The position numbers and the translations under genes are program-made. This document shows positions 34,321 through 64,000 of a DNA stretch of 64,000 bases, in pieces. Within the stretch, counting starts at the first letter, position 1; every line of letters begins with the position of its first letter. Below the pieces are notes generated by a model, which saw nothing but the letters and a program-made list of their open reading frames with translations, made no database searches and was not told the DNA's origin. The stretch comes from Gammaproteobacteria bacterium. GTDB taxonomy: Bacteria; Pseudomonadota; Gammaproteobacteria; Ga0077536. The stretch is taken from NCBI GenBank assembly GCA_963662545.2, contig CAXXLL010000002.1:1568001-1632000 (forward strand). The letters run 5' to 3'.

Positions 34321-34445
34321 GGCATGTCCTCTTTCCGCAGGAGAGTCGAAAACGGGCTGTAGAGATATTAGCAAGGCCGCCGTCGAGTGCCGCCCAGCCG
34401 CTTGCAAACGGACTCTATTCGCCTATAGTGGAGTCATCGAGCGAA

Positions 34446-34521
34446 GCTAGGGGTGCTCCTCCGCCGGGGCTGAGAACATACCCTTCGAACCTGAACCGGT
34501 TCATGCCGGCGTAGGGAAGCA
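34446..34521 (+). ncRNA. TPP riboswitch
   Basis: GGGGTGC...GCTGAGA...ACCCTTCGAACCTGAACCGGTTCATGCCGGCGTAGGGAA directly upstream of thiC. Confidence 0.95.
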
Positions 34522-34565
34522 GTGGCCCTCCTAGACGCAGCGCGATAATGACGCAAGCAACGTAA

Positions 34566-36458
<1,893 letters not shown>

Positions 36459-46651: not shown

Positions 46652-48640
46652 ATGCCGAGAACACGCGTGGGCCGACCTCCAATCCTCATGACTGTACGCG
46701 GCGTTACCAAACCGCTACAGCAATGGGCGGCTGACAACGGGCTCTAAAGGATCCCCACGAATTCATACGAATTCAGCCTGGCCGGTGATTAAGGCGTTGA
46801 GTTGTGGAAAGGCGCTTTCGAGGTCAGCGCGCGACAGTTTAAAGCGGTGACTGCGCCACAGCTGATGTCCCAAAAAAGGTAGAGACAACACCGGTCGTCG
46901 TCGTTCGGTATTCGCCTGAAAATGGCGTGCCCACTGTTTGGCTTGCGCGGCAAGGCCGGTAATCCAAAGGACGAGGCTCGCTAATAGCGCGATGAGCAGC
47001 AAGATCTCAAGGCGTTTCGTATCGGTGCACCGTGCATAGCGTAAGGCGAAGCCCCAACGATGGTTTTTGAGGTCCCGAAAGGCTTCTTCAATTTGCATAC
47101 GTTGAGCGTAAGCGCGCATGATTTTGTTGCCGCTACCGCGAGCATACGGTAAGGAGGTAGCGAGCAGCCAGGGAGCGCGGTGTAAGCGACGATATAAGCG
47201 GCCATTGGTACCGTAACTTTTGCGTTTCGCGTGTCGTCCCGGTGCGCGATGATAGGCACGCACGAGATAGAGCCGACACCAGTAACGATGGCGTTTGGAC
47301 AGGCAGCGTTGACCGATATGTTGAACCTTGGGCGTCGCTTGCGGGTAAAGCGAATGAACGTAGCACCAGCGTCCAGTCTCGGGTTTGAAGTACTTGATGG
47401 TATTTCGGATGCGTCCGATCCAATCCCAGCCCAATGCTTCGACCGCTCTAAACCAGGGGCCACGGAAGCCGGCATCGGTGACGACGATGGGGCACACCTC
47501 ACGGGGTAGTATTCGATGAAGGGTTTTCAGGAACAGGCGATGGATTCGGGGGTTATTATAGCGCCGTAGCGGATGCACTTCCTCGTACAGCGTGATGGCT
47601 CGACCGGCGATGGGGACAGCCGCTCTTAAGATGAGCATCTCTCGTTCAAGCTCGCAATCGGCCCAATCTACAATGATGAGCGGGCGCGCTATCCCTGACA
47701 ACACAGTGCGGGCCAGGGCGGCGTAGATGCCGTGTCGTTCTTGCTGAAGATGACGGTTGCCAAGTCAGGCGGTCTACGGCTTTGATGTGATGTTTGACGA
47801 AAGCTGAGCCGCTGCGATGTCGTCCTAGGTGTGTCAATGCCAGCTTGCCACCATCGAGTAGTGCGACGACTACCCGGAGCGTGGCATCGAGTCGCGCCCG
47901 ATGTCCGATGACGGCATTGCGCTCGCACCATTTTTTTAACAAGCTAATAGCGTGCATGCTGCTGCTCCTGACCTTAATGATTGTGTGGTAACGACCATTA
48001 GATCAGGCGGCAGCAGGCACGTCGATCATCTAACTGTTTGTATTCTTTGCATGAAACGTCTTAAATCGTGGGGATACATCAGCAAGGGCTACACCCCCAG
48101 TCCATTCGCAGACGACTGAAAAAGGGCGCAACCCCAGCGGAAGCGGTTGCCAAAGTTCAAAGCAGAACCCGACTCATTACCATTAACGGTAAGACGCGTT
48201 CGCTTGCCGAATGGCTGCGGCATTACAACCGCAACGACGTGACATTCTATTGGCGTATCGCCCGGGGCTATTCCGAGCAGGATGCAATTACTACCCAGCT
48301 ACAAAAACGAAAATCTGCTTTACCTCGTGCCGATAAATACGACACACCGCTTAAGGGTCGATCGGGCGTTTATTCCATTCGATGCAAGTCAACCAAGCGA
48401 TACTATATTGGAAGCAGCACAAATCTGCTGAATACGAAGACGCGTTGGTCATCTAACCTAAATGCCCAAAGCAAACGCTCATTGCCGAAGCGATTGTTGC
48501 CCGATTTGCAGAAACACGGTGCCGACAGCTTTGAGTTCCACGTACTCACGTTCTGCGAACCCGACCGCATACAATCAAGAAAAGCGACATTGTTACGCCA
48601 AGCACAAAGGAAACATCTGCGTAGGCTCTATAACCCTTGA
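46652..48640 (+). pseudogene. GIY-YIG endonuclease with two N-terminal DNA-binding repeats, interrupted by IS4
   Basis: MPRTRVGRPPILMTVRGVTKPLQQWAADNGL rejoins HPQSIRRRL across the IS; SGVYSIRC...YYIGSS GIY-YIG motif. Confidence 0.75.
46744..48082 (-). mobile_element. IS4-family (IS10-group) element with frameshifted transposase (47957-46763)
   Basis: IRs CTAAAGGATCCCCACGA and CTGATGTATCCCCACGA; flanks CAACGGGCT/CAAGGGCT; KHHIKAVDRL, VTDAGF, RMQIEEAFRDLK; frameshift near 47765. Confidence 0.9.
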
Positions 48641-48922
48641 AAACTCACCGTTCGGCACTAATCGCTTTGGCCAGAGGGTGAGAAAGAGGAATAAGAAGCC
48701 GCCGATCAAGCTCACGTCCGCTTAGCCCGAAAGCAGCCATCATCGGCGATGCAAATCCCACACTTGATCATGACGGCTTACGGCCAACGGACGAAACCGC
48801 TATCGCGGTAGTGGTTAGCGAGGTTGTGGCGGAGTAGTAGTCAGTTCAGTTAGCGAGATGGGCCCGCCCTGTGTTGAGGTTGTTATCGGAAAACAACGAC
48901 CCACAACACAGGAGACAGGCCC

Positions 48923-49804
48923 ATGACCCAGTCTAACAATTCCATCAGCCCTTTACGTCAACGCATGATCGACGACATGACCTTGCGTCAGCTGCAGGAG
49001 AAAACGCAGAGCGGATATCTGCGTTCCGTCAAACGCTTGACGAAGTTTCTGGGTCGCTCACCGGATAGCGCGTCAGCCGAAGACCTGCGCGCGTTTCAAA
49101 AACAGTTGGTTGAACACGGCGCGTCGAGCGCGACCATCAATGCCACGATCCGCGGTCTACGGTTCTTCTTCGAGACCACCTTGGAACGCCCAGCGGCACT
49201 CAAACGGATGAGTCCGGTGCGGGTGCCGGAGCGCTTGCCGGTAGTCTTGAGCGTTGCAGACGTCACCCGCTTACTAGACGCCGCGCCCAATCTGAAGTCG
49301 AAAGCCGCGCTGTCGGTGGCCTACGGTGCCGGCTTACGCGCCAGCGAAGTCTGCCACCTCAAAATCACCGACATCGACAGTGAACGGATGATTATCCGGG
49401 TCGAGCAGGGTAAAGGTTCGCGCGACCGTCAAGCGATGCTCTCGCCCGCTTTGTTAGGTTTACTGCGCGCCTGGTGGCGCGACGGTCATCGCCGCGGCAA
49501 GATGCTCCCCAAGGGTTGGCTGTTCCCCGGCAGGGATCCCGTTGACCCGCTCTCACCTCGTCAACTCAATCGCATGTGTCACTTCGCCGCGGCCACCGCC
49601 GAGTTGGATAAACAGATCTCCATGCACACCCTACGCCACAGTTTCGCGACGCACTTGCTCGAACAGCAGATCGATATCCGGGTCATCCAGGTATTACTTG
49701 GCCACAAGAAGCTGACCACCACGGCGCGCTATGCCCATGTCGCAACGAAGGTGTTGAGCGACGTACAAAGTCCCCTCGACCGGCTGAGCTTACCGACGCC
49801 GTAA
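48923..49804 (+). CDS. Tyrosine recombinase (phage integrase family, IS91-associated)
   Basis: N-terminal SAM-like LRQRMIDDM; GLRASE, QGKG, HTLRHSFATH, LLGH, TARY. Confidence 0.95.
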   Translation: MTQSNNSISPLRQRMIDDMTLRQLQEKTQSGYLRSVKRLTKFLGRSPDSASAEDLRAFQKQLVEHGASSATINATIRGLRFFFETTLERPAALKRMSPVRVPERLPVVLSVADVTRLLDAAPNLKSKAALSVAYGAGLRASEVCHLKITDIDSERMIIRVEQGKGSRDRQAMLSPALLGLLRAWWRDGHRRGKMLPKGWLFPGRDPVDPLSPRQLNRMCHFAAATAELDKQISMHTLRHSFATHLLEQQIDIRVIQVLLGHKKLTTTARYAHVATKVLSDVQSPLDRLSLPTP

Positions 49805-49805
49805 C

Positions 49806-50960
49806 GTGGCGCGGCCACCGCTCGAGGTGGCAGATATTTTTAGACGCGACGGCGCGACCTGGCGTCAAGCGCATGCCGGTCATATCAGCCTCGGCCAACT
49901 CAAGGTCATGTCTGCCATCGAACACTGCCGCACCGAGGCGCTCGGCGGGCACCTGTTGCATTGCGAGCCGTGCGATGCAGAGCGTATTGCCTATAACTCG
50001 TGCAGGAACCGCCATTGTCCGAAATGTCAGGGACGTAAAGCAGCGCAATGGCTCGAACACCGTCAAGCAGAGCTGCTACCGGTTGAGTATTACCATGTCG
50101 TGTTCACTCTACCGGCCCAGATCGCCGAGTTTGCCTATCAGAATAAAGCCGTGGTCTATGACCTGCTGCTCAGAGTGTCTGCCCAGACACTCCTCATCAT
50201 CGCCGCCGATCCGAAACACCTGGGCGCCCAGATCGCAATGACCTCCGTGCTGCATACCTGGGGCTCGGCACTCACCCATCATCCGCATGTCCATTGCATC
50301 GTGCCCGGCGGCGGACTCGATGGCGAGACCTGGGTGCCGTGCAAACGGGGGTTCTTCCTGCCGGTACGGGTGTTGTCGCGACTGTTCCGGCGCTTGTTTC
50401 TGGAGCGGCTCCACCAGGCACACCGTGACGGGCAGCTACACTTCTGCGGTGACTTGGCGACTCTCGCCAACCGCGCATCGTTCGACCAGTATCTGGCACC
50501 ATTGGCGCAAACCGATTGGTTCGTCTATGCCAAACAACCTTTTGCCGGACCCCAAGCCGTGCTCGCTTATCTGTCGCGCTACACCCACCGCCTCGCCATC
50601 TCCAACCATCGGCTCATCGCCCATGATGCGCGTGGCGTCACCTTCCAATGGCAGGACTATCGCAGCAAACGCCGGGTGCGCTACCAACCCATGACGCTCG
50701 CCACCGATGAGTTCATCCGGCGCTTCCTGAACCACGTCTTACCCAGGGGCTTCCATCGCATCCGTCATTACGGCTTGCTCGCCAATCCGGTGCGACGCGA
50801 TAACCTGGCCCGCTTGCGCCGAGCACTCGATATGCACCACGAGCCCGACGTCGAAACACAACCAATTACGACACCTTCGCCGACCTTCGTGTGTCGAACC
50901 TGTGGCGCGCCCTTACAGATCGTCGAGATCCTAAACCCGAGAACTCGGTCACCGCCATGA
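49806..50960 (+). CDS. IS91-family (Y2 HUH) transposase
   Basis: Zn-binding YNSCRNRHCPKC, HVVFTLP, HUH HPHVH, YLSRY (YxxxY), RIRHYG; starts 1 bp after the integrase stop. Confidence 0.95.
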   Translation: MARPPLEVADIFRRDGATWRQAHAGHISLGQLKVMSAIEHCRTEALGGHLLHCEPCDAERIAYNSCRNRHCPKCQGRKAAQWLEHRQAELLPVEYYHVVFTLPAQIAEFAYQNKAVVYDLLLRVSAQTLLIIAADPKHLGAQIAMTSVLHTWGSALTHHPHVHCIVPGGGLDGETWVPCKRGFFLPVRVLSRLFRRLFLERLHQAHRDGQLHFCGDLATLANRASFDQYLAPLAQTDWFVYAKQPFAGPQAVLAYLSRYTHRLAISNHRLIAHDARGVTFQWQDYRSKRRVRYQPMTLATDEFIRRFLNHVLPRGFHRIRHYGLLANPVRRDNLARLRRALDMHHEPDVETQPITTPSPTFVCRTCGAPLQIVEILNPRTRSPP

Positions 50961-51370
50961 CATCGGCTTCTACTGACAACAATGACAGGCAGCACGCAGC
51001 GGTGTTGGCGATCTCTTATTGCCTCAGCCGTGGCAGACACCCGAACCGCGCGATCAAAACCAACCGATCACTCGCTAAAACCGCTCTCAAAAGCATCGAT
51101 AGCGCCGACATCGGACTTCGAATCGCCGCGCACCACCACACCGTCGACCCACTGCCCTAAACAATCCCCATAGCCACGCCCCGCGGTTTCCTCCCCTGGG
51201 CGTTATCGAACATCCGCCTCAACGCTGTCGCAGAACCGCGCCCTTGTGCCGTTGCGGGTGTCCAATAACCCTAACCATGAGCGGATCCGTATGGTGTGTG
51301 TGGTTTGTAATTTGTGTTCCTTTGATGGCGGCCTATTCTTAACAATAGAAAAACGTATGAGAATGGCGTT

Positions 51371-52336
51371 ATGCGAAAACTAGCACTCTGTGCGTTTTGC
51401 GTGTTGTGCGTAGCGTGTACGACTTCTTACCAACCAAATCGCCAAGTCGTAGTTCCTCCAGTTCATAACGACAAGATTGACCCAGCCAGGTCATCTCGGT
51501 ATATCCCGAGCCAGGAAGAAGAAGAAAAAGCGAAGGCGCGCCCTGCTGAAAAAGCTACGGTAAGCCTTATTGAACTGGTCGCGACCCGGACGGCGGTGGA
51601 TGCGTCGAGATACACGTTCGACCTCGTCGTGGAGCTCGCGCCCCAACTCGCGGGCTTCGATCCCGACGTGGCCCATGGAACGGGCACTGGGACGCTTCGG
51701 GGCGCTCGACGTGGCGCGTTGGGCTGCATCAAGGCAGGGGCATGGATGGATATTGGCAGTGGCCACTTTGTTGTCCTCGGGATCCTGCTCTCTCCAGCCT
51801 GCGCTGTTATCGGCGGGTTGGTGGGAGCCGCCTCCGCTGAGTCGAAAGAAGACGCCGCAGCCCGTATGATCGAGGCGCTGAGCAAGACGGCAGCCGACCT
51901 CGGGTATCCTGAAGAGCTGCCCCGCCTCCTGGCGATGGAGCTTCAGGCGAACTCAATCTACCGAATCCACTCCGGGGGTGGACGCGAGACGAGCGGTGCT
52001 GGACAGGAGGAGACACCCAACGCCTCGATCCACGTCCGCATAACCGAGTACGGTCTGACCCGCTTTGGGGTCGGGGCCTACTTTCAGCTGCAGCTCTCCG
52101 CCGTCGTTTGCGTCACCGCAAACGAGACTGGCGAGGCACTCTCGTTCGAGAAGCTGGCGGTGCGTTCCGATGAATTTTACCTGACGGAATCGGGCGCAAG
52201 ATCATCACACTCATTCTTAGAGGCCCTCACGACCGCGCTCACCAGAAAACTGGCCACCTCTGCCGAGGAGGCGTTCGGCCATCTGGTTTCACTCGGGGAT
52301 AAGCCGTCCTGCTCATGGCAAGACGGTCCAACCTGA
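51371..52336 (+). CDS. Hypothetical lipoprotein
   Basis: MRK plus hydrophobic stretch and lipobox-like CVAC; central Gly-rich hydrophobic segment. Confidence 0.65.
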   Translation: MRKLALCAFCVLCVACTTSYQPNRQVVVPPVHNDKIDPARSSRYIPSQEEEEKAKARPAEKATVSLIELVATRTAVDASRYTFDLVVELAPQLAGFDPDVAHGTGTGTLRGARRGALGCIKAGAWMDIGSGHFVVLGILLSPACAVIGGLVGAASAESKEDAAARMIEALSKTAADLGYPEELPRLLAMELQANSIYRIHSGGGRETSGAGQEETPNASIHVRITEYGLTRFGVGAYFQLQLSAVVCVTANETGEALSFEKLAVRSDEFYLTESGARSSHSFLEALTTALTRKLATSAEEAFGHLVSLGDKPSCSWQDGPT

Positions 52337-52410
52337 GGGCGAAGTTCAGATTGCCGCGGAATCTCTGATGCACCCTGATATCTTTTCGCTATCGTCGACT
52401 AAGAACGAAC

Positions 52411-52492
52411 GACCGCTTCGGGTCGTCAGCGGCCGGATCGTGGCAACACAGCACTGCTCTAGATTACGTCTGCAATGCGCTCGTAAGCGGCC
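52411..52492 (+). repeat. 82-bp composite intergenic repeat, copy 1
   Basis: GACCGCTTCGGGTCGTCAGCGGCC...GCACTGCTCTAGATTACGTCTGCAATGCGCTCGTAAGCGGCC; matches 56306-56373 and 60735-60816. Confidence 0.9.
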
Positions 52493-52541
52493 ATTCAGCT
52501 TGTTTAGAAAACATCGCTGGAGGTGACTTCGGCTTCCGGCC

Positions 52542-52716
52542 GAGGCTGTGTCAAAAGTCGAAAAATGGAGCCCGCCGCGAAAATTTTCCCCACTTAGGTA
52601 AGATGAACGGGTCGATGTTATGCACGATTGATTAAGGGAACGCACCGCCTAAGGTAGGCGAATCGGGTTAAACTTCTCCCACTTTCAAAATTCGAAAATA
52701 CTTTTGACACAGCCTC
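52542..52716. mobile_element. IS1182-type MITE (175 bp)
   Basis: Perfect 17-bp IRs GAGGCTGTGTCAAAAGT; 4-bp target duplication GGCC. Confidence 0.85.
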
Positions 52717-52849
52717 GGCCAATAACAGACCTTATGAGTTGTTGCTCTGAGCTCGATTATTCGACGGGCATCGATTTGAAGTGCGCGCGGGTGTCTAACG
52801 GAGTTACTCTTGACAGTGGGCATACAGCAATAGTGGCGAGGAGTCGAAT

Positions 52850-53716
52850 ATGGCGCGCGTTGGAGTGATAAAGGAGATTTGGCGTTTTCCGGTGAAATCG
52901 ATGCAGGGCGACACAATCGAGCGCTGCAAGGTCACTCAAACCGGCGTCGCGGGTGACCGGTGCTGGGCGATGCGCGACGAGGGACGGGCGGAGATTACAT
53001 GGGGCAAGCGTTATCCGCAGCTCATGCTGTGCTCGGCGCGGTATCGCGCCGAGCCGAGCGATGATGCGATCACACCGGTCGTTATCACGTTCCCCGACGG
53101 GCAAACGATCGGCAGCGACGATGCGCGGGTCAACGCTAAACTGAGCGAATTGATCGAGCGTGATGCGACGTTGCGCGCAATCGAACCAGCTAGCAATCTC
53201 GAATTCTACAAGCGCCACAAACCGGACGAACAAGTATTCCTTGAGGAAATGACGGAGCTTTTCGCGCGCGAGCCGGGCGAACCGGTACCGGAGATGTCTC
53301 TGTTCCCAGAGGTGCTGATGGATCATGTCGCGGTCCCCGGCACTTTTTTCGACAATGAGGAGATCCATATGATCACCACGGCGTCGATGGACTACATGCG
53401 CAGGAAAAATCCCGGCGCGAACTGGGATATCCGGCGTTTTCGTCCGAACTTCTACATCGAGACCGACCCGGCGGTAACGGGCCTGGTCGAAAACGACTGG
53501 GTCGGCAAGACTCTGGCGATCGGCTCGGCAACCCTCGAGATCACCATGCCGACGGTGCGTTGCGGTATGACCGTAAGACCACAAGCCGATATCGAATATG
53601 ACAAATCGATATTGCGCACTGTGGTGAAGGAAGGCGACCAATGCCTTGGCGTTGGCGCCCATGTGCGCGTGCCCGGTGAAATCAAACAGGGCGACACGGT
53701 TGAACTGAACGACTAA
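52850..53716 (+). CDS. MOSC-domain protein
   Basis: WRFPVKSMQG, GDRCWA, RRFRPN, RC. Confidence 0.92.
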   Translation: MARVGVIKEIWRFPVKSMQGDTIERCKVTQTGVAGDRCWAMRDEGRAEITWGKRYPQLMLCSARYRAEPSDDAITPVVITFPDGQTIGSDDARVNAKLSELIERDATLRAIEPASNLEFYKRHKPDEQVFLEEMTELFAREPGEPVPEMSLFPEVLMDHVAVPGTFFDNEEIHMITTASMDYMRRKNPGANWDIRRFRPNFYIETDPAVTGLVENDWVGKTLAIGSATLEITMPTVRCGMTVRPQADIEYDKSILRTVVKEGDQCLGVGAHVRVPGEIKQGDTVELND

Positions 53717-53855
53717 CAATTGGACGCGCTGCGCCACTTGGCAGACAAAGAGCGGCGCAATGATATCGAATCACAGCGGCGTCGGAGCAACGCCTGTGTA
53801 ATATGTCGGAGACGGCTATCCGTCCCCGTTCGCACAACGAACTTGGAGAGCAGAT

Positions 53856-54563
53856 ATGGCGGAGCAAGCCCCCAAGAAAATCGACCTCGCAAGCGTCGAT
53901 CATGTTATGAAGACCACGCGCACGGTCCGTCTGCGCCTCGACCTCGAGCGATCCGTTCCGGAATCACTGATCGAAGAAGCGATCGAAGTGGCGCTCCAGG
54001 CACCGACCGGAGCGAATTCTCAGACCTGGCGCTTCGTCGTAGTCACGGATGAACATTTACGCTCGGGTATAGCTGACCTGTATCGCCAGGGGGCGGAGCG
54101 TTACCTGGCCGGTGAAACCGGAGTAACGCGCACCGGCGTGGCCGTCGATAAACAGTACCCTGACGACGACCCGCGTCAGCAAAGAATGCCTCTAATCGTC
54201 AAATCGGCGGTCCATTTAATAGAAAATCTGCACCGCGTCCCCGTACACATCATGCTTTTCCTGGAAAACCGCTTCGACCACGAAGATGTCTTTACCCAAG
54301 GCTCCATGTGGGGGTCCATTCTACCGGCGGCCTGGTCGTTGATGCTGGCGCTCCGCGCGCGCGGAGTTGCGTCGGCCTGGACGACATTCACTCTGATGTA
54401 TGAAAAAGAGATCCAGGAACTTCTCGGCGTTCCTGCGCATTACACGCAGGCGGTACTGCTACCGGTCGCCTGGCTCAAGGGTGGCGATTTAAGACCCGCG
54501 AAACGCTTCCCGGCGCGCGATGTGACGTTCTGGAACGGCTGGGATAAACAGCGCGCTGAATAG
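53856..54563 (+). CDS. Nitroreductase family protein
   Basis: TTRTVR, QAPTGANSQTWRFVVV, LALRARG. Confidence 0.9.
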   Translation: MAEQAPKKIDLASVDHVMKTTRTVRLRLDLERSVPESLIEEAIEVALQAPTGANSQTWRFVVVTDEHLRSGIADLYRQGAERYLAGETGVTRTGVAVDKQYPDDDPRQQRMPLIVKSAVHLIENLHRVPVHIMLFLENRFDHEDVFTQGSMWGSILPAAWSLMLALRARGVASAWTTFTLMYEKEIQELLGVPAHYTQAVLLPVAWLKGGDLRPAKRFPARDVTFWNGWDKQRAE

Positions 54564-54616
54564 CCGCTAATGGTTTGAGGTCAGAGTACAAGAACCTACA
54601 AGGTCTGCTTAGGGTC

Positions 54617-56301
54617 CAGAGTGTGTGAAAACTCGGAATGAAGAGGAATCACGTCGAGAACTCCTCGTCAGACGCAACGCGGCGCGGTTACGACGGCCGC
54701 GCTCGCGGTCCAATGCGATCGGTTAGTTAATGGAACATTCCTTAGAACGGCCCCAGAAGCCGGCAGTGAAGCCGTGGATCAGGGAGTTTTCGAGGCCACA
54801 GAGGGTCTCATGCCGTCATCGCTTCGATGAGCGTAGCGACACCCAGTAGATTCATCACGCGTTTCATGTTGTAAGCGAGCACGTGCAGACTCATTTCCGT
54901 ACCAACGTGTTTCAGCGTGCGCATCTGGAAGTGGGTCGAACCCATCCAGGATTTGATCGTGCCAAATGGATGCTCGACCGTCTCTCGGCGGACACGCATA
55001 GGGTCAGGTTCACGATCCAATCGCGCCTGCACCGCTTCAACAACCGCTTCATGTTCCCAACGGCTGACGCGCCGGTATCGACCCGTTGTGCATTTAGATT
55101 TGATCGGGCAGCGGGGACACGCCGAACTCCAGTAGCGCCGGATCTGCTTGCCTTTCTCCACTCGGGTGAACCGGTAAATCAGTCGCTCACCGGCCGGGCA
55201 TTCATACGCATCCTCTTCGGGTTGGTAAATGAAGTCGCGCTTGCCAAACAAGCCCTTCGCCTGGTTACCCGAGGTCTGCGGTTTCGGCAGATAGGTCGTG
55301 ATGCCGGCTTTAGCGCACGCCAAGATCTCTTCGCCACTGAAGTACCCGCGATCCGCAACGACGGTCAACTCCTTCTTATCCAGCGCCTCTTTGGCTTTCT
55401 CCGACATGTTCGACAGTTGCGCCCGGTCATGACCTACGTTCGTCACTTCATGTGCCACAATCAGATGACTCTTCGTGTCGACCGCCGTCTGCACGTTGTA
55501 CCCCACCATGCCGCTGCCACGGCCGCTCGTCGCCATCGAGCGCGCGTCCGGGTCCGTCAGTGAGACCTGATGGTCCGGCGTCTCCTCGAGCCGTACCTCG
55601 AGCTTTTTTAGGCGGCCTATCTCTTCCTTCAGTACCTCGATCTTGTCCTTCAAACGCTGCGACTTGTCACCTGACACCGCACGCTCCTGGCGGTCGGCAC
55701 TTGCAATTTCCGCCAGGTACCGCTCAACGCTCTCGTCAATCTGCTGCAACCGACGTTTCAGCTTCGCCTTCGTGAAGTTCCGGTCACGGTTGTTTACCGC
55801 TTTGAACTTGCTGCCATCTATCGCCACGAAGGCTTCCGAAAACAGCTGCAGCTTACGGCACAGCATCACGAACTCCCGGCATACCAGACGAATGGCGTCA
55901 CCGTTATCTTTGCGGAAATCGGCAATGGTCTTGAAATCAGGCGCCAGACGACCCGTCAGCCACATCAGTTCCACGTTCCGCTGCGCCTCCCGTTCCAGGC
56001 GACGGCTCGATTGAACCCGGTTCAGGTAACCGTAGATATAGAGCTTCAGCATCGTCGCCGGGTGATACCCCGGTCGACCCGTCTCATGCGCATCGGTTCT
56101 GAAACTCAGACCTGACAGATCCAACTCATCGACGAACACATCGATGACCCGCACCGCACTCTCCTCAGCGACATAATCGTCCAGACACTCGGGAAACAGC
56201 GTTGTTTGGCGGCGGTCCGCGCCTTCAATGAACCCGCTCATCAACGACTCCCCAGGACCGAAAGAGTGATCTTATCTGATGCAGAGTTTTCACACACTCT
56301 G
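54617..56301 (-). mobile_element. IS1182-family insertion sequence
   Basis: Perfect 18-bp IRs CAGAGTGTGTGAAAACTC; 4-bp target duplication GGTC; inserted within the composite repeat. Confidence 0.95.
54808..56244 (-). CDS. IS1182-family transposase
   Basis: SSRRLE, PDFKTIADFRKDN, IDGSK, TDPDA, GYNVQ, ADRGY, VEHPFGTIK. Confidence 0.95.
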   Translation of the reverse strand: MMSGFIEGADRRQTTLFPECLDDYVAEESAVRVIDVFVDELDLSGLSFRTDAHETGRPGYHPATMLKLYIYGYLNRVQSSRRLEREAQRNVELMWLTGRLAPDFKTIADFRKDNGDAIRLVCREFVMLCRKLQLFSEAFVAIDGSKFKAVNNRDRNFTKAKLKRRLQQIDESVERYLAEIASADRQERAVSGDKSQRLKDKIEVLKEEIGRLKKLEVRLEETPDHQVSLTDPDARSMATSGRGSGMVGYNVQTAVDTKSHLIVAHEVTNVGHDRAQLSNMSEKAKEALDKKELTVVADRGYFSGEEILACAKAGITTYLPKPQTSGNQAKGLFGKRDFIYQPEEDAYECPAGERLIYRFTRVEKGKQIRRYWSSACPRCPIKSKCTTGRYRRVSRWEHEAVVEAVQARLDREPDPMRVRRETVEHPFGTIKSWMGSTHFQMRTLKHVGTEMSLHVLAYNMKRVMNLLGVATLIEAMTA

Positions 56302-56305
56302 GGTC

Positions 56306-56373
56306 GTGAGCTGCCTCCTCGCGGCAGTGCAGCACTGCTCTAAATTACGTCTGCAATGCGCTCGTAAGCGGTC
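56306..56373 (+). repeat. Composite repeat copy 2 (left part at 54603-54616, split by IS1182)
   Basis: GCGGCAGTGCAGCACTGCTCTAAATTACGTCTGCAATGCGCTCGTAAGCGGTC. Confidence 0.9.
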
Positions 56374-56577
56374 GTCAAACAACGTTCGGCTGCGTGACCA
56401 TAGTGCAGGGCTGCAGTCGGCCACAAGCGGTCCTCAAACTCCCGCGGCATAGCACTCCGGTTACCACGAATTGACTTGGTAGAAGTGCAAAGTGGTAGGC
56501 TGGCTTCCCGCGCGGTATGGTTGCCCTGAAGCGCGCTTCCGGCTGTTATCTGCTCAGCGAGAAAGGGCTCATCCACT

Positions 56578-58278
56578 GTGAAGTTTTCGGAAATCATCGA
56601 CCAAGCCAGCGACTTACTCCAGCGTAAGCGGCGGTTGTCGTATCGTGCCTTAAAGCGGGAGTTCGGTCTTGACAATGAAGCGCTCGAAGACCTGAAAGAA
56701 GAACTGATTGAAGCCCGCGGCGCGGCGGTCGATGAGAACGGGCGAATCTTGGTCTGGACGGGCACAGAGGTTCGTTCACCGGAGTCCCCGGCCGCCGCTA
56801 CTGCCACTCAGCCCAGCGCGCGGGCGACACCCGTGCCGGCCGACCCACCGCTGCCCGCAGGTGAACGTCGGCAACTCACGGTGATGTTCTGTGACATGGT
56901 TGGCTCGACCACGCTGTCCGAACAACTCGATCCCGAAGACCTGCATACCATCGTGCGCACCTACCAGGCGGCGTGTCGGGAGTTCATTGAGCACTACGAG
57001 GGGTATATCGCCCAATACCTGGGCGACGGCATTTTGGTCTACTTTGGCTACCCGGCGGCGCATGAAGACGATGCTGTCCGCGGGGTTCAAGCGGGCTTGG
57101 ATATCTTGGACCAACTCCAACGCTTGAACCCCGCCCAACCAATCCAAATTCGGATTGGCATCCATACCGGCCCGGTGGTCATCGGCGCGGTCGGGGACGG
57201 CGAGCAAACCGAGCAACTGGCCTTGGGAGAAACACCGAATCTTGCCGCACGCGTGCAAGGGAAAGCCGCAGCCAACACGCTCGTCATTAGCCGGGATACT
57301 TACCGCTTGGTCCAAGGACTCTTTGCGTGTGAAGACCTCGGCTCGCAGGAGTTGAAGGGTTTCTCTGCCCCACTCACGCTCTATCAAGTCACCGGGAAAG
57401 GAGAGGCGCAGAGCCGGTTTGACGTCTCCGTGCAGCAGGGCCTCACGCCCTTCATTGGTCGAGAAGAAGAACTCGAGCTGCTCTTGCGGCGGTGGGAACG
57501 CGCCAAAGAGGGTGACGGCCAAGTAGTGATGCTCAGTGGTGAGGCCGGTATTGGAAAATCCCGTCTCGTCCAGGTGCTGAGAGAAAAAATTACTCACGAA
57601 GACCAATTCGGGACATTCTTTCTCTGTTCGCCCTTTTATCAGAATAGTACGTTGTATCCGGTGATCGGCCAGCTACAGCGCGTCTTGCAATTCACCGAGG
57701 ACGACTCCCCGACCGCCAAATTCACCAAACTCATTCAAGCGCTTGAACCGGTGGCGATGACAGACCCCGAGACTCTTGCGCTCTTTGCGGCCTTACTCTC
57801 AATCCCGCTCCCCGACGACCACCCGCCCTTAGAACTCAGTCCCCAGAAGCAAAAAGAAAAGACCCTGCGAGCGCTAGTGACCTGGCTGCATAAGATAGCT
57901 GCTCAGCAACCCGTCCGGGTGACGGTTGAAGATCTACACTGGGTCGATCCGTCGACCTTAGAATTCCTTGGTCTCCTCATCGAGGAGGCGCCCGATGCTC
58001 GGATGCTGGTCCTGCTTACCTTCCGCCCGGAGTTCACACCGCCGTGGCCGTCGCAGGCGCATGTCCTCGCGATGCACTTGAGCCGGCTGTCTCCGCGCCG
58101 TATCGCCGAGGTGGTGGAACGGGTCGCAGGCAAGCCGCTGCCACACGACATTGTTCAGCAACTCATTACCAAGTCGGATGGCGTGCCGCTGTACATCGAG
58201 GAGATGACCAAGAATCTGCTGGAGTCGGGGCTGCTGACCGAGACGGACAGGCAGTATGAGTTAACCGGCCGGTACTGA
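56578..58278 (+). pseudogene. Class III adenylate/guanylate cyclase + AAA ATPase protein, C-terminally truncated by IS6
   Basis: ERRQLTVMFCDMVGST, YLGDG, RIGIHTG, NLAAR, GEAGIGKS, EDLHW, DGVPLYIEE; the stop codon lies inside the IS6 IR. Confidence 0.88.
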
Positions 58279-59059
58279 CAAGTTAAACGACTTTAAGTGA
58301 CAATTCCTGGATGAATCAATCATCCAGCCTCTACAAACGTCACAGATATCCACCTGCGATCATTCAATATGCTGTCTGGCTCTACCATCGATTCAATCTC
58401 AGCCACCGCGATATCGAAGATCTTCTGGCTGAACGTGGTATTGAAGTCAGTTATGAATCTGTTCGGTTGTGGTGCAACAAGTTTGGGCCGAAATACGCCA
58501 GGCGTCTGAAGCGTCGACACCAAGGATTCGGGGATACGTTCTTTATCGATGAAGTCTTCGTCAAGATCCGCGGCATCCAGCACTATTTGTGGCGCGCCGT
58601 CGATCAGGATGGAGAAATAGTCGATGTTTTCCTGCAGCGACGGCGTGACGGAGCGGCCGCTAAGCGCTTCTTCAAACGCGTATTGAAAAACCACCGATCT
58701 GAACCGAGAAAGATAGTGACGGATAAATTGAGAAGCTACGGTGTGGCCCACCGGGGCATGATCCCCAATACAACCCACGACACAGCGCAATACGCTAACA
58801 ATCGCGCCGAGCTTTCCCATCAGCCAACCCGTGTAAGAGAACGGGGCATGCGGCGCTTCAAATCGATGAAACAAGCCCAGCGCTTTTTGACAGTTCACGC
58901 GGCCGTCTACAATTTATTCAACCTTGGTCGTCACCTTGTTTCAGCGAAGACTTATCGGTTTTTTCGAATGCGTGCCTTTGCGCTTTGGGAGCAAGTTGCT
59001 GCGTAAAAGACAGATTCTGGTCAAGTACGTCCAGACAGAGAACTTAACTTGTCAGTACC
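58271..59059 (+). mobile_element. IS6-family insertion sequence
   Basis: Perfect 16-bp IRs GGTACTGACAAGTTAA; no target duplication. Confidence 0.95.
58311..59006 (+). CDS. IS6-family transposase
   Basis: YKRHRYP, IDEVFV, LWRAVDQDG, VTDKL, NNRAELSHQPTR. Confidence 0.95.
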   Translation: MNQSSSLYKRHRYPPAIIQYAVWLYHRFNLSHRDIEDLLAERGIEVSYESVRLWCNKFGPKYARRLKRRHQGFGDTFFIDEVFVKIRGIQHYLWRAVDQDGEIVDVFLQRRRDGAAAKRFFKRVLKNHRSEPRKIVTDKLRSYGVAHRGMIPNTTHDTAQYANNRAELSHQPTRVRERGMRRFKSMKQAQRFLTVHAAVYNLFNLGRHLVSAKTYRFFRMRAFALWEQVAA

Positions 59060-59170
59060 CTCGTAAGCGGTCGTCGAAGCGCCGTAGGCGCCATGCAGAA
59101 CCCCGACTTCAGCAGTCGGCCAACACCGGACGCCGCTGCTATGATTCCCGCAAGTGGCGGCGCGGCGACG

Positions 59171-60691
59171 TTAAACCATACTCAGGTAGTCATAAAACAG
59201 GTCCGCCGGATCGTAAGTGGCGCGCAATGCGCGCAAGCGCGCCCACGTCTCTGGCGTGTAGCATTGCTGGGCGACATCGGCCTCCTTGGTGAGATCCGTT
59301 TCGCCGACATAGCGGCCTATTTTGTGCGGGTCGAGTAATGCTGTCGCGCCGGCATGCCAGGCACGATTCGTGTCATCGTCAGCCGCATCCGTCCATAGCG
59401 TGTTGTTGTACACGAGATAGCGCCCAAGCCACGAGTATGACGTTGCATTCAATTCGAAAGCCGGGTGGAAACAAACCGCTAGAATGTGGGACATCGGCGA
59501 CGGCGCGCTGGCGTAATGCGCGGGGCTGCCGGTGAGCATTGTCCGGAGCGGTACGTTCGACCAGACGTTGTCCACCACGCAGCGGTGACCGCCCGGCAGC
59601 GTCGCGCCGAGTGTGCCTAAAAACGTGTCGAGATCGGTTGGGACATTCACCGAGGATGACACGGCCCGGCTCACGCGCGGATCGGAATTCAGGGGCTTGA
59701 GTGCCGTCTCCGCGTCGGCCACGGAATCGGAATAGGCGATCGCCATTACAACCCCGACGGTTTCGTTGTCGGCGGCCAGTTCGGGCGGCGGCGCGCCAAT
59801 GGACAGGATCAACAACACATCCCGCGACATCGTGGCCGAGAGGCCGTCCACCAATTCACTCGCCGTACCGATCGCGGATCCGGGAAACACATAGGTGCTC
59901 ATGGTGATCGCGCGTGGGAGAGGGTGAAGCTTCAAGTGATAGCGGGTCGCCACGGCGAAAAATCCTGGACCTGCGCCGCGCGCGGCCCAGAACAAATCCG
60001 CGTGTTCTCCGCTACTCACAGTTAGTTCGCGACCATCGGCGAGCACGAGATCGATGGCGAGGACATTGCTGCACGCGGTGCCCCAACGATTGAAGTTCAG
60101 GCCGTTGCCGCCGTTGAGCAGAAATCCGCTCATGGGGACGGTCGGACAATGGGCGACCGGAAACGCGAGACCGTGCTCGGCCGCCTGCTGGATCAGTTCG
60201 GCGCCCTGAATCGCCGGCCCGATGGTCGCGGTCGCCTGCGCCGCGTCGATTGTGAGCGACCGCATGTGTGACAGGTCGAGAAGAACGCCGCCTTGGCGCA
60301 GTGACGACGCACACCAACTGTGCCCACCTCCTCGCACCGCGACCTGGCGACCCTGCTCGCGGGCCAAGCGCAGTGTGGCGACCACATCGGCTTGTGATTT
60401 AGCCATCACGATGACTTCAGGGCGCCGCTCCGGGAGCATGCGATTCCAGCTGATGCCACGCATGGGCTCGAAACGTTTGTTGTCGGGCAACAGCAGATCG
60501 CCTTCGAGGGTGTCCGCGAGGGCGTGTAAGGCCTTCGCGGTGCGTTCAGCGTCGAAGGCGGCCGGCTGCGCGGCCCAGCTCGACGCGGTGGTTGCGATCA
60601 GGGCAGCCGTCGCCACGCAATACTCCAGGAACTCGCGGCGCGGTATTGATACAGACTCTTGCCCCTTGTGCATGTCGATCCCCTTGTGCAT
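59171..60691 (-). CDS. Tat-exported FAD-binding oxidase (berberine-bridge/VAO family)
   Basis: PRREFL twin-arginine signal; VRGGGHS, DLFWAARG, YDPADLF; start may be 60673. Confidence 0.9.
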   Translation of the reverse strand: MHKGIDMHKGQESVSIPRREFLEYCVATAALIATTASSWAAQPAAFDAERTAKALHALADTLEGDLLLPDNKRFEPMRGISWNRMLPERRPEVIVMAKSQADVVATLRLAREQGRQVAVRGGGHSWCASSLRQGGVLLDLSHMRSLTIDAAQATATIGPAIQGAELIQQAAEHGLAFPVAHCPTVPMSGFLLNGGNGLNFNRWGTACSNVLAIDLVLADGRELTVSSGEHADLFWAARGAGPGFFAVATRYHLKLHPLPRAITMSTYVFPGSAIGTASELVDGLSATMSRDVLLILSIGAPPPELAADNETVGVVMAIAYSDSVADAETALKPLNSDPRVSRAVSSSVNVPTDLDTFLGTLGATLPGGHRCVVDNVWSNVPLRTMLTGSPAHYASAPSPMSHILAVCFHPAFELNATSYSWLGRYLVYNNTLWTDAADDDTNRAWHAGATALLDPHKIGRYVGETDLTKEADVAQQCYTPETWARLRALRATYDPADLFYDYLSMV

Positions 60692-60734
60692 GTCGATCGT
60701 TAGCGGGCGCAGTCTAGTTCAGATGTGCGTCGAT

Positions 60735-60816
60735 GTCCGCTCAGGATCGTCAGCGGCCTGATCGCGGCAGCGCAGCACTGTTCTAGATTACGTCTGCAAT
60801 GCGCTCGTAAGCGGAC
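60735..60816 (+). repeat. 82-bp composite repeat, copy 3
   Basis: GTCCGCTCAGGATCGTCAGCGGCC...GTCTGCAATGCGCTCGTAAGCGGAC. Confidence 0.9.
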
Positions 60817-61009
60817 TCGAGCGGCTTTGAACCCACCTTCTCGGCGGTCGCCGCAGCACCCATTATTAATGCTGTGCGTTCGCTACAGTTTCCTAAAATT
60901 ACCGTTAAATAAAATCGAAGGGCTTACAAAACACATGTCCTTGTTTATATTCATAGCAGGGTATTTCTGCCCGTACATTAACTGATAGACCGACAAGGGG
61001 AGAACCGTC

Positions 61010-61510
61010 GTGAAGCACTTCAGCGCAATGGTTTTGGGCCTTCTGCTAAACGGCGGGCTGTGGGCCGGGGACGACGGAATTCGCACGTTCGACTTACCGC
61101 AAGGGATAACCGTATCGATTCCAGACGGCTGGGTGCTAATTGGCGAAAATCAACTGCGGGCCTACGAGCGAAAACGGGACGCCTTAGTTGGGGACTATGC
61201 GAGCGCGACTGGCGCCCAGGCACATGTGCCTTTCCAAGCGCTGAAACGCACGTCCCAATCGAGCACCGGAGCCATGATGACAGTCATGCCCGGTGAAGCC
61301 ACCCAAGATGAGATCGCACAGTGGGCAGAAGAGGACGGCAGGATCGAGGAGCTTGGTCGATTGCTTGGACAGGCACAGAATCAGGGTCTAGCGGCCGCCG
61401 GTGCGACCGATATTCAAATTGGTCCTGCTGAACTTCTCGACCTGATAATTCAACAACGTTACTCTCTCTCATGGTGGCGTATCCTCTTTGGTTGGCTTGC
61501 TGCTTGGTAA
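61010..61510 (+). CDS. Hypothetical secreted protein, probably truncated near 61435
   Basis: RBS GGGGAG, signal peptide, SIPDGW; the tail runs into AT-rich IS-like sequence. Confidence 0.5.
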   Translation: MKHFSAMVLGLLLNGGLWAGDDGIRTFDLPQGITVSIPDGWVLIGENQLRAYERKRDALVGDYASATGAQAHVPFQALKRTSQSSTGAMMTVMPGEATQDEIAQWAEEDGRIEELGRLLGQAQNQGLAAAGATDIQIGPAELLDLIIQQRYSLSWWRILFGWLAAW

Positions 61511-61575
61511 CAACATTTCAACCAGATACGCCGCCTTTATTCAATTCACTCAAACACCAGATTCAGTTATAACTC
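61430..61575 (-). mobile_element. Probable IS256-family left-end remnant
   Basis: GAGTTATAACTGAATCTGGTG end; GGCGGCGTATC...GATACGCCACC hairpin before ATG of MRESNVVEL; family assigned from recalled resemblance only. Confidence 0.45.
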
Positions 61576-61690
61576 TAGCAGAATGACTGAGCGGCCTAAC
61601 ACCTATGAGGCCCTCGCACATCAAGGGCAATAAGCGCCCGTCGTATAAGATTCGATAGAAATGGTTTTCGAATAGCGCGAGATCTAATCG

Positions 61691-62020
61691 TTGGTCAACT
61701 GCCGCAAATGTGGAAAGAGGTTACCGTTCCGTAGTTTTCTGTTTCCCCCAGGTCTTTCTGTTGCGGATGTGAAATGCCCTTCCTGCCATCTCGTGATGCG
61801 TGCCGGTCGGCGGAGTAAACAAACGATCTGGTTAGGACTACTCATAGGCGGCATCCTCGGTGCGGTTGGTGCACATTGGGCCTACCAGGTTCAGGGCTGG
61901 AGTCGCGGTTCAAGTGCCGGGGTTATATTGGCCGTTGCGATCATGGTTGGCGCGGCGTTGACATGCTATGCGTGGATCAAAAACGACTACGAGGCGAATA
62001 CGGACTCGGCCCGCGAGTAG
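61691..62020 (+). CDS. Small zinc-ribbon membrane protein
   Basis: CRKC and CPSC plus two TM helices. Confidence 0.6.
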   Translation: MVNCRKCGKRLPFRSFLFPPGLSVADVKCPSCHLVMRAGRRSKQTIWLGLLIGGILGAVGAHWAYQVQGWSRGSSAGVILAVAIMVGAALTCYAWIKNDYEANTDSARE

Positions 62021-62091
62021 AGATTTAATCCCTCCAAAAACCATTACAACTTCCCGCCTCAAATTCCGTATACCGACAGCGTTGTTGCAAT

Positions 62092-62116
62092 AAAAAACCG
62101 CCCGAAGGCGGCCTTT
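62092..62116 (-). terminator. Intrinsic terminator (minus strand)
   Basis: AAAAAA-CCGCC-CGAA-GGCGG downstream of the PEP-CTERM remnant. Confidence 0.7.
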
Positions 62117-62137
62117 CATGAAGCGATAGGGTTGCTG

Positions 62138-62215
62138 TTAAGCTGCTTTACGCCTTTGGAAACCCAATCCCGCTACAGCTAATCCCATTGAAGCAAGCGT
62201 GGTGGGTTCGGGCAC
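62138..62215 (-). pseudogene. Orphan PEP-CTERM sorting-signal fragment
   Basis: Translates VPEPTTLASMGLAVAGLGFQRRKAA-stop; an in-frame stop lies 12 codons upstream. Confidence 0.75.
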
Positions 62216-62288
62216 ATGTAGAATTAAAGGGTCGGTGACAACGGAGAATCATTTGCTTTCTCATTTGTCAGCGGCCCCTTTTTCTGAT

Positions 62289-63137
62289 CTACAATCGGAG
62301 GCGAAAAAAGTGGTTCTGCAGTCGGGGCCAGTTAAGCCCGATTGCAGAAACCAACCACGGCACCAGCCGAAAGGTGAGCGGAGCTGCGCACCGCAACGCC
62401 CACCAGGTCAGGGCGCCGAGGGCAGGAGACTCCGCGGGCAAGAACGGCAGTGTGCGGCGGCGAAGTTCGACGAGCTCGACCGCGACTTCCATGGCCGTAT
62501 AGGCGCGGTTCCGACGCACGTCTGGGGAGAAGAAGCCGGCAGCCTGGAACAACTTCCGGTAGAGAGGCACACTGCGATAGACCGCCTGGTACTCGCCTTG
62601 GGAGGCGGTGCTCCCCCTTGGGATCGTGCTCTCCCGTAGGATCACGGAGCCCCCGGTCTCAAGCTTTGCTCCCAGTGTGCGAAGTAGCGCGATCACGTCG
62701 GCATCGTTCAGATACATGCAGAGCCCTCCCAGAAAGATCAGGTCGAAAGGCCCCTCGGGGAGCCGCGCTCGCGCGTCTCCTTGCTGAATTTCGACGTGGG
62801 CCTGCCCCGCCAGCCGAGCCCTGGCGCAGCGCACCATGGATGCGCTCCGCTCAACGCCGATCGCCGTTCCGCACCGTCTCGCGAAGATCTCGGTCCAGGT
62901 ACCGGCGCCGCAGCCGAGATCGAGTACCTTTCCGTCCGCCGGCATCTCGGCCAACCAATCCGTGATGGTGGCTACCTCGCCGCGGAGTCGGTAGCGAACC
63001 GAGTCGGGCGGCAGGTTTTGCGCGTGCGCCATGTAACTGGCCGAAACCGCGGCGTCGGTGGTTATCCCCTCGAAATATTGCTGAACGGCGTCGTCGTCGA
63101 TCTGCTGGCCAGCGATGTCTGGACCGGTGTCGTTCAT
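62289..63137 (-). CDS. Class I SAM-dependent methyltransferase
   Basis: VLDLGCGAG, GVERS, FDLIFLGGLCMYLND, GGSVILRE. Confidence 0.88.
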   Translation of the reverse strand: MNDTGPDIAGQQIDDDAVQQYFEGITTDAAVSASYMAHAQNLPPDSVRYRLRGEVATITDWLAEMPADGKVLDLGCGAGTWTEIFARRCGTAIGVERSASMVRCARARLAGQAHVEIQQGDARARLPEGPFDLIFLGGLCMYLNDADVIALLRTLGAKLETGGSVILRESTIPRGSTASQGEYQAVYRSVPLYRKLFQAAGFFSPDVRRNRAYTAMEVAVELVELRRRTLPFLPAESPALGALTWWALRCAAPLTFRLVPWLVSAIGLNWPRLQNHFFRLRL

Positions 63138-63252
63138 GGCCTCGATGATACTCGCAGTGACCTTTCCCCAAAAAAAAGAATGTAGGAGAGTACCGGAATA
63201 TATGATCAGTGTTGGAATGAAAACGCCACCTAACAAGCGTTCGAGCGGACGT

Positions 63253-63296
63253 GACCGCGGATTCTTCTCAGCGGCCTAATCGCGGCAGCGCAGCAC
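63253..63296 (+). repeat. Composite repeat copy 4, truncated by IS4
   Basis: TCAGCGGCCTAATCGCGGCAGCGCAGCAC followed directly by the IS end. Confidence 0.8.
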
Positions 63297-64000
63297 TAGT
63301 AACGATTCATAGGTCGGATCTTATAACCCGTTGAAAAGAGGGAACCAAAAGCGCTCCACCCGATCAGATCATGAAATCAACATCAATCAACATCATGATC
63401 TGGGAGTATCGGATGGAGCACAAACAAATTAGCACGGTGAGTCGTCAGTTAAAACGCACGCTAGGCGAGCGCACGCTCAACGATTTGGGGCGTGCAACGC
63501 GGTTCTGTCGGCGTGAACGGGAGATTACGCCGTTCCGTTTAGCGGTGAGCCTGATCGAAAGCTTCGGCGGGCACTCGGCGGGTTGCATTGCCGATATTCA
63601 ACGGGCTTTCAATGCCCTGTGCTCGACCACGGTGCGCTACAAACCGTTTCATAATCAGCTCGCTAAAAAGCAGTTTCCGATGTTTATGCAAGCGCTGCTG
63701 AGCGAATTGCTCAATGGCCTGGCCTGCGATGTCCTCCGATTCGAACCCAACAGCCCATTTGCGCAGTTTGACCACATCCGCATCCAGGACGGCACCTCGT
63801 TTGCGTTAAAACCGGCGCTGAAGGACAGCTTTCCCGGTCGCTTCACGACCGTGAGTCCCGCCGCGGTGGAACTCCATGCCGATCTCGACCTGCTCAGTGA
63901 GACCCTGAACGAGGTCGTACTCAGCCCTGACAGCTCAGCAGAGCGGCAGTTCTTGCCGGCGGTTGAAGAGGTCGCTGGCGGTTTGTTGCTGGCCGACCGT
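63297..64000 (+). mobile_element. IS4-family element running off the window; transposase starts at 63413
   Basis: Open frame MEHKQIS...FCRRER...YKPFHNQL...IQDGTSFAL...FPGRF...AAVELH; IR-like TAGTAACGATTCATA. Confidence 0.85.

Follow-up and report, generated by a model that had tools for sequence, protein, structure and literature searches.

Co-oriented arrays of palindrome-box repeats between gene modules in a marine gammaproteobacterium that carries a classical integron

The repeat unit and the array in the window

The window analysed here is a stretch of 64,000 nucleotides (C2:1568001-1632000) from the genome of a marine gammaproteobacterium, which is assembled in three contigs (17.6 kb, 2.59 Mb and 2.97 Mb; 58% G+C) and also contains a classical integron. 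Towards its end the window holds an array of palindrome-box repeats with unrelated gene modules between them. The first repeat is interrupted by an element that encodes a tyrosine recombinase and a Y2 transposase of the HUH type. The original prediction, made from the sequence of the window, described an integron-like gene-capture array, with this pair of genes as its engine and the palindromes as hairpin sites processed as single-stranded DNA.

The layout of the repeat was obtained from an alignment of about 100 genomic copies with their flanks. A type-1 unit is approximately 150 nt long. Its S box is followed by a conserved core of 45 nt and the M box, after which a variable linker of about 45 nt leads to the E box. 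In the sequence logos, the S and E boxes have a common 24-bp design, GnCCGCT-N3-GGYC-N3-AGCGGnC, with 7-bp inverted arms around a 10-bp centre. The centre reads GGTC in S boxes (T in 98%) and GGCC in E boxes (C in 93%). The M box is related to both, with a different centre, and all three boxes are direct, not inverted, relative to each other. The type-2 unit has an S-like box, a different centre and an E box. The profile finds eight full genomic copies of it, and six copies were aligned.

All 13 palindromes of the original prediction fall within units of this family, which was mapped independently. The proposed pattern GTCCGCT-N~10-AGCGG does reflect a family far beyond chance. Its strict form (GTCCGCT-N8-12-AGCGGNC) matches only once, at 60735, against 0.07 expected; the boxes are thus degenerate, and profiles were used instead of regular expressions, which were discarded as either too strict or too loose. 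A repeat search within the window recovered 78-nt copies at 52413, 56294 and 60737, and partial copies at 59053 and 63268. The 82-bp composite proposed earlier is a real repeat, although it covers only the S and M boxes of a unit that runs on to the third box, E. The nine units of this array are all on the plus strand, as had been noticed, and the array extends past the window end. The profile finds no unit in the first 41 kb, which agrees with the earlier observation except for an isolated box-like match at 35951 on the minus strand.

The array is preceded by a GIY-YIG endonuclease-like gene (48068..48640, plus strand; Pfam GIY-YIG 27.5 bits; TIGR01453 48 bits, below the cut-off of 56). Next, the type-2 unit (48663..48788, plus strand) has its S-like box at 48716-48739 and the left part of its E box at 48772-48788. 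The right part of this E box is placed by the alignment of six copies at 51278-51286 (plus strand), beyond an IS91-family element (48789..51277, plus strand) with the tyrosine recombinase gene at 48923-49804 and the Y2 HUH transposase gene at 49806-50960. Module 1 is a 321-aa open reading frame (ORF; 51371..52336, plus strand) with no Pfam or NCBIfam match. It is followed by type-1 unit 1 (52409..52541, plus strand; nhmmer match 52409-52565, E 2.4e-34), with S at 52411-52434 and M at 52468-52492. The left half of its E box runs to 52541 and the right half is at 52717-52730 (plus strand), with a 175-bp miniature inverted-repeat transposable element (MITE) inserted at the box centre (52542..52716; GGCC duplicated at 52538-52541 and 52717-52720).

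Module 2 (52850..54563, plus strand) contains genes for a MOSC protein (52850-53716) and a nitroreductase (53856-54563). The left half of the S box of unit 2 (54603..54616, plus strand; GTCTGCT-TAG-GGTC) is followed by an IS1182-family insertion sequence (IS) located at the box centre (54617..56301, minus strand; transposase 54808-56244; GGTC duplicated at 54613-54616 and 56302-56305). The remainder of unit 2 (56302..56441, plus strand) contains the right half of S, M at 56349-56373 and E at 56409-56432 (nhmmer 56285-56441, E 8.5e-41; box matrix 18.1 at 56409). Module 3 is an adenylate/guanylate cyclase and AAA ATPase gene (56578..58278, plus strand), partially matched by TIGR03903 (model positions 282-746 of 1267), with its 3' end cut by an IS6-family element (58271..59059, plus strand; transposase 58311-59006; NF033587 215 bits). 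The end repeat of this IS6 element recurs at 5751-5844, 52 kb upstream, and it is the copy at 58271 that truncates the cyclase-ATPase gene. The element has also removed the S side of unit 3, of which the right half of the M box, the variable part and E (59108-59131) are left (59060..59135, plus strand; nhmmer 59053-59135, model positions 73-155; box matrix 19.2).

Module 4 is an FAD-binding oxidase gene (59171..60691, minus strand). Unit 4 (60730..60831, plus strand; nhmmer model positions 6-108) has S at 60735-60758 and M at 60792-60816, with no E box. Module 5 (61010..63236), which is single-copy in the genome, contains small ORFs at 61010-61510 and 61691-62020 (both plus strand) and a methyltransferase gene at 62289-63236 (minus strand). 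Finally, unit 5 is a remnant with an S box and the start of the core (63253..63297, plus strand; nhmmer 63268-63307), cut by an IS4-family element that begins at 63298, has its transposase start at 63371 and is present in 12 genomic copies. For the cargo genes from MOSC to methyltransferase, Pfam agrees with the functions first assigned. The half units mentioned in the original prediction are boxes split by insertions (IS91 element, 48788/51278; MITE, 52541/52717; IS1182-family IS, 54616/56302). The IS6 and IS4-family elements cut two further units, at 59060 and after 63297, and one gene. About one third of the array stretch in the window is made of insertion sequences.

In the array region, Rfam and tRNA scans found nothing, and promoter and terminator scans stayed at chance level (3 against 3.1; 10 against 8.2). 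Outside it, a thiamine pyrophosphate riboswitch is present at 34439-34534 (68.4 bits, gathering score 54.3).

Boxes as landing sites for mobile elements

The IS1182-family element is 1685 bp long (NF033551 466.5 bits, cut-off 270) and has the inverted ends CAGAGTGTGTGAAAACT/AGTTTTCACACACTCTG. Each of its 14 near-identical genomic copies splits an S box at the centre, with GGTC on both sides. A search for uninterrupted E-S junctions gave none, and each IS copy is accordingly read as splitting one S box. The MITE of this IS has perfect terminal inverted repeats of 17 bp (21 bp counting the flanking GGCC duplication), and all 10 near-full genomic copies lie in E boxes with GGCC on both sides. Furthermore, the S side was mapped in 106 units, and 44 of these have an IS-type end at the S box. 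Several mobile elements land in the boxes with high specificity. A related preference is reported for IS1272, a member of the IS1182 family, which targets inverted-repeat structures (PMC5678879). The window IS is similar in that all 14 copies lie in a palindromic target. It differs in that every copy has a 4-bp GGTC duplication, no duplications being reported for IS1272, and in that one defined box family is targeted.

As for the IS91-family element, its ends (48789 and 51277) were set by a 97.9% identical copy and by four copies in another genome. Its transposase reaches 423 bits with NF033538 (cut-off 125) and has Y2_Tnp and Zn_Tnp_IS91 domains. The tyrosine recombinase has 293 aa and a full catalytic domain (Phage_integrase 145.7 bits), is Xer/IntI-like, and has an active-site stretch, HxLRHSFATHLL...GH...Y, that aligns with XerD and an XerC-like recombinase. 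Against the integron integrase model TIGR02249 it scores 174 bits (cut-off 265), matching positions 5-174 and 238-315 only, that is, on both sides of the IntI-specific insert and not within it. In a preprint (10.1101/542381), tyrosine recombinases from IS91 elements form an “Integron-like subgroup” without the IntI insert. The element of the window resembles IS91-family elements with an accessory tyrosine recombinase in the gene pair, the sizes, the absence of the insert and the presence of multiple copies in many taxa. In a scan with one genome per species, the 78 loci kept with integrase and Y2 transposase belong to many phyla, and a single contig accounts for 18 of them. The pair is also matched by 354 plasmid records, annotated as IS91 family transposase and site-specific integrase, and the unit sequence has no match among plasmids.

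The genome has six copies of the IS91 element, all of them in arrays. In five the insertion is within an E box and follows GGCCA(N)(N), while the sixth lies directly next to another copy. The insertion site is a few bases 3' of the E-box centre and shows no duplication. This use of a single E-box position by five of six copies sets the elements apart from other IS91 elements with a recombinase. Copies that are only 64% identical in protein sequence occupy the same position of type-2 units, which argues for target choice. A metagenome contig that is 93-97% identical to this genome has an intact E box (…GGCTCACGGCCAGGAGCGGTC…) at the position where this genome has the right end of the element, so the two represent an empty and a filled site.

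The pair is a common IS91-family element that invades the boxes, and probably not the dedicated enzyme of the array, contrary to the role first proposed for it. Two other genomes of the genus have arrays, G001 (89% complete) and G002 (95% complete), and neither yielded the recombinase, drafts of this kind often losing insertion sequences. In these two, only Y2 fragments of 87 and 55 profile positions were present. Conversely, among 40 relatives the recombinase occurs in three other genera where the unit was not detected, and the repeats around an IS91 element in a genome of another order form no arrays. Hence the pair is not needed to keep arrays, though it may have acted on them in the past. 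In alphaproteobacterial and other metagenome-assembled genomes, the sequence next to the left end of the element is ...GTCGA or ...CGACGTN, in many cases after a GTCCGC-like motif. The family with IS91 transposase and integrase may favour similar half-palindromes elsewhere. A literature search turned up no palindromic-repeat preference for these elements.

Arrays, modules and module boundaries

The nhmmer profile finds 121 type-1 units in the genome. They are not evenly dispersed: 112 of them are found in 11 regions totalling 362 kb, or 6.5% of the genome. Co-orientation is almost complete, with 33/33, 17/17, 9/9, 8/8, 8/8 and 6/6 units in one direction in these and other arrays. The exception is one region with two opposed runs, of 4 minus and 6 plus units. 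A weight matrix of the box gives 71 genomic matches at a score of at least 18, against 4 in reversed-sequence controls. Of these strong boxes, type-1 units contain 62 and type-2 units account for 6, which leaves 3 at other places (C2:1603961, C3:862963 and C3:1040864).

Seven of the eight full type-2 units immediately precede the first type-1 unit of their array, which means that arrays have a head. A GIY-YIG endonuclease-like gene precedes three heads (window 48068-48640, C2:~606 kb and C3:~385 kb). The three copies have diverged, each has a type-2 unit within about 25 nt of its 3' end, and the protein is a possible candidate for a box-directed nuclease. Tyrosine recombinases were observed near the tails of four minus-strand arrays and of no plus-strand array.

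Units were searched for in relatives by BLAST on the 40 genomes and by one exact-pattern scan of metagenomes. Among the 40, only the two same-genus genomes have the unit. The metagenome scan gave 8 stretches, 3 of them with a substantial unit. From this sampling, the repeat appears to be a mosaic element restricted to the genus. A search of the literature, with subscription journals and supplements outside its reach, found no description of such arrays.

Units follow one another at a median distance of 2.1 kb, with one ORF in 41 of the 97 intervals. Modules are common to several arrays. Module 2 (MOSC and nitroreductase) is present in three, with 99.1% identical copies at C2:2578497 and C3:910014. 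In one array of G001, five modules have matches of 88-96% identity in at least three arrays of the present genome, in a different order. The FAD-oxidase module of the window is 95.8% identical over 1661 nt to one of G001 (contig C14), where it lies between different units. Its homology runs from the centre of the upstream E box to the centre of the downstream S box, and the flanking unit bodies differ between the two genomes. Likewise, the upstream module in the metagenome contig matches as far as the S-box centre, beyond which the contig has a different unit body and a different module. These comparisons bear out the expected shuffling of cargo at units, with homology ending mostly in an S or E box.

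In a separate observation, C2:2578497-2584861 and C3:910014-916378 have in common two successive stretches between units (3701 and 2505 bp) with 100% identity. This points to a block of several modules that was transferred or duplicated very recently.

The boundaries were surveyed with pairs of units that share one flank only, 11 on the left and 7 on the right. On the left, 9 of 11 boundaries fall at model positions 130-138, in the E box (4 of these due to the MITE or an IS), and the remaining two at positions 36 and 56. On the right, 6 of 7 fall at positions 9-25, in the S box, and one at 54. Pairs dropped by the survey filter have boundaries near 25, 35 and 66. The boundaries thus lie preferentially in the box regions, where the shared sequence next to unique DNA is very short, and are not exclusive to the boxes. 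In this small sample, a shared module extends from the upstream E box to the downstream S box and takes neither flanking unit with it.

Contigs from four public runs, belonging to four studies, carry the modules with 0-2 differences and break at every repeat. Joints in these contigs have sides of 21-35 nt, which could stem from other copies of the repeat, and excision, linkage and circles are beyond their reach. In addition, the sampled words of window positions 59000-61000 recur at a fraction of 0.71-0.99 in runs that come from four studies and carry the labels of four host organisms, and sponge and sediment metagenomes contain 0.3-0.5 of them. The summed contig depth at 61001-61600 is 10-70 times that of neighbouring bins in each of the four public runs, though the stretch is single-copy in this genome, possibly due to a gene common to other organisms in the samples.

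The classical integron is located at C2:~982-997.7 kb. Upstream of its integrase gene it has 9-11 attC sites, each about 125 nt long with the ends CCTAAC...GTTAGGY. Its cassette ORFs are mostly on the opposite strand, and the profile finds no palindrome-box unit there. Two integron integrases exceed the TIGR02249 cut-off, at C2:996723 (462 bits) and C3:1527239-1528180 (461 bits), both far from any unit array. The second has no repeat array in the 17 kb upstream or the 14 kb downstream. As originally predicted, the S and E logos show no RYYYAAC/GTTRRRY boxes, and with a canonical attC array elsewhere in the genome that is unrelated to the units, the palindrome-box arrays are not attC arrays.

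The proposed processing of hairpin sites as single-stranded DNA found no backing in the pairing tests. Pairing of S with E at variable positions equals that of shuffles (42 distinct units; conserved positions are uninformative), and pairing across modules equals the shuffled expectation as well (28 pairs). The z-scores for DNA folding of units are unremarkable to modest, from -2.9 to +0.2, RNAalifold on 70 units gives no structure, and mutual information among units is dominated by shared IS flanks. ORFs show no polarity, with 112 oriented with the units and 102 against them (crude longest-ORF calls; 240 ORFs called, 26 multi-copy ORFs left out).

Proposed exchange of modules at the boxes

We favour, with a probability of roughly 0.55, a reading in which modules are exchanged in a box-directed manner at a mosaic repeat, with the integrase/Y2 pair as a parasite. 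The boxes would be the joints at which modules are exchanged, and a putative box-directed breakage-and-joining activity, supplied in trans, would carry out the exchange. The units punctuate accessory, IS-rich regions as co-oriented arrays. In these, the central GGYC is where the IS1182-family IS and the MITE insert, duplicating 4 bp, whereas the insertion point of the IS91 element is 3' of the E-box centre. Of the gene-capture array first proposed, what stands is that co-oriented arrays separate unrelated modules, that the modules shuffle and that homology mostly ends in an S or E box.

In build alone, the repeat resembles two known kinds of mosaic. The bacterial interspersed mosaic elements (BIMEs) of enterobacteria are mosaics of repetitive extragenic palindromic (REP) units, and the Neisseria intergenic mosaic elements (NIMEs) are RS segments flanked by 20-bp dRS3 repeats. 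Common to these and to the present repeat are short palindromic boxes with conserved or variable linkers, an intergenic position, a high copy number (121 here), boxes targeted by mobile elements and a location in variable regions. Unlike in BIMEs and NIMEs, the boxes are direct and not alternating, the units form about 12 polar arrays instead of being dispersed, and gene-sized modules appear to be exchanged at the boxes.

Several results weigh against box-directed exchange. Simple recombination from box to box should leave solitary boxes, and the weight-matrix scan found essentially none separating genes within arrays. No gene family is common to all nine array heads, which leaves the arrays without an associated candidate enzyme. 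Boundaries also occur within the unit (~25-36, 56 and 66), where a homologous crossover between conserved cores would explain them no less well than a joint at a box. The boundary sample is small, and some of its pairs are redundant or related to insertion sequences. Since the centres of S and E differ (GGTC versus GGCC), exact duplications do not flank units or modules, and S and E are unlikely to exchange freely within the centre. Lastly, the contigs of the public runs contain the same modules unchanged, and such data are blind to linkage and circles.

A second, IntI-independent cassette system, with site-specific excision and integration at the boxes or at folded S:E stems by a tyrosine recombinase acting in trans, is a distinctly less probable explanation, and one we consider tentative. 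It would account for the strict polarity of the arrays and their distinct head unit, for the box-centred boundaries and for boxes built like core sites, with 7-bp inverted arms and a 10-bp centre. The recombinase of the window has a conserved active-site stretch, matches the IntI model on both sides of the insert and belongs with the IS91 recombinases of the “Integron-like subgroup” mentioned above, and all six of its copies in this genome are in arrays. That the recombinase was not found in G001 and G002, which have arrays, and is present in three genera without detectable units counts against this system, as do the lack of S/E covariation within the unit and across modules, the absence of ORF polarity and of solitary boxes, and the boundaries inside units. 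Contigs, in turn, cannot show circles or deletion joints.

As in the cassette arrays of integrons, including sedentary chromosomal ones, co-oriented imperfect-palindrome sites of about 60-150 nt lie between unrelated modules, each site end is a pair of inverted boxes, single modules are common to different arrays and species, and arrays are invaded by site-specific insertion sequences. Unlike in integrons, there is no RYYYAAC/GTTRRRY in the units and no adjacent platform of IntI, attI or Pc, the modules do not carry a site, ORFs have no polarity and pairing shows no covariation. The pdif modules of Acinetobacter plasmids have 28-bp (11-6-11) XerC/XerD sites in alternating orientation that resemble dif. 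The arrays share with them gene modules bounded by short palindromic recombinase-type sites in varied contexts, while the boxes, by description, are 24 bp long (7-10-7), direct, unlike dif and part of a three-box unit. Put more specifically, about a dozen polar arrays whose modules are exchanged at box centres by a trans-acting recombinase or nuclease, beside a classical integron, is a picture that we propose with doubt. Candidate enzymes for such a second system are the IS91-linked integrases, as the nearest relatives of IntI, the orphan second IntI and the GIY-YIG endonucleases at array heads.

It is also conceivable, though improbable, that no dedicated mechanism exists, and that passive repeats are moved by segmental duplication and by homologous recombination between units and identical IS copies. 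The 6.2 kb of 100% identical segments common to C2 and C3, the breakpoints at several places inside the unit and the 14 identical 1.7-kb IS copies exactly at S-box centres are what such a process would leave. Most boundaries are nevertheless at an S or E box, where the shared sequence of about 10 nt is too short for homologous exchange, the 80-nt conserved core is less often used as a breakpoint, and the strict co-orientation and the head position of type-2 units would still need explaining.

REP or REPIN (REP doublet) elements spread by a RAYT (REP-associated tyrosine transposase, Y1 HUH) are very unlikely. The units do contain short intergenic palindromes, REP/BIME-like in build, and the genome has seven Y1_Tnp matches. 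None of the seven coincides with a strong box outside the arrays, however, and the single match within an array is fragmentary, covering 42 profile positions. The boxes are direct and not inverted pairs, and the concentration of 112 of 121 units in 6.5% of the genome, together with polarity and box-centred boundaries, exceeds what passive accumulation of a REP-like family, the alternative named in the original prediction, would give.

Least probable of all, and barely worth entertaining, are clusters of attC sites lacking integrases (CALINs) with divergent attC sites. Two encoded IntI proteins would suit them, as would the imperfect palindromes, which are clustered and co-oriented and lie between unrelated genes. 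The canonical attC sites of the genome's own integron are unrelated to the units, though, no unit is found at that integron, the attC motifs are missing from the units and modules do not carry a unit along.

If the boxes are true joints of exchange, gene-cassette arrays would not be unique to integrons, and both kinds could be compared in one cell. If the IS91-linked integrase were the enzyme, the arrays would show a cassette platform forming around a transposon-borne, Xer-like recombinase. On a conservative reading, the arrays provide natural examples of target choice, with an IS1182-family IS and its MITE inserting at one 4-bp palindrome centre every time, and divergent elements with IS91 transposase and integrase hitting one position of the same box. 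Both insertion mechanisms are directly testable with short oligonucleotides.

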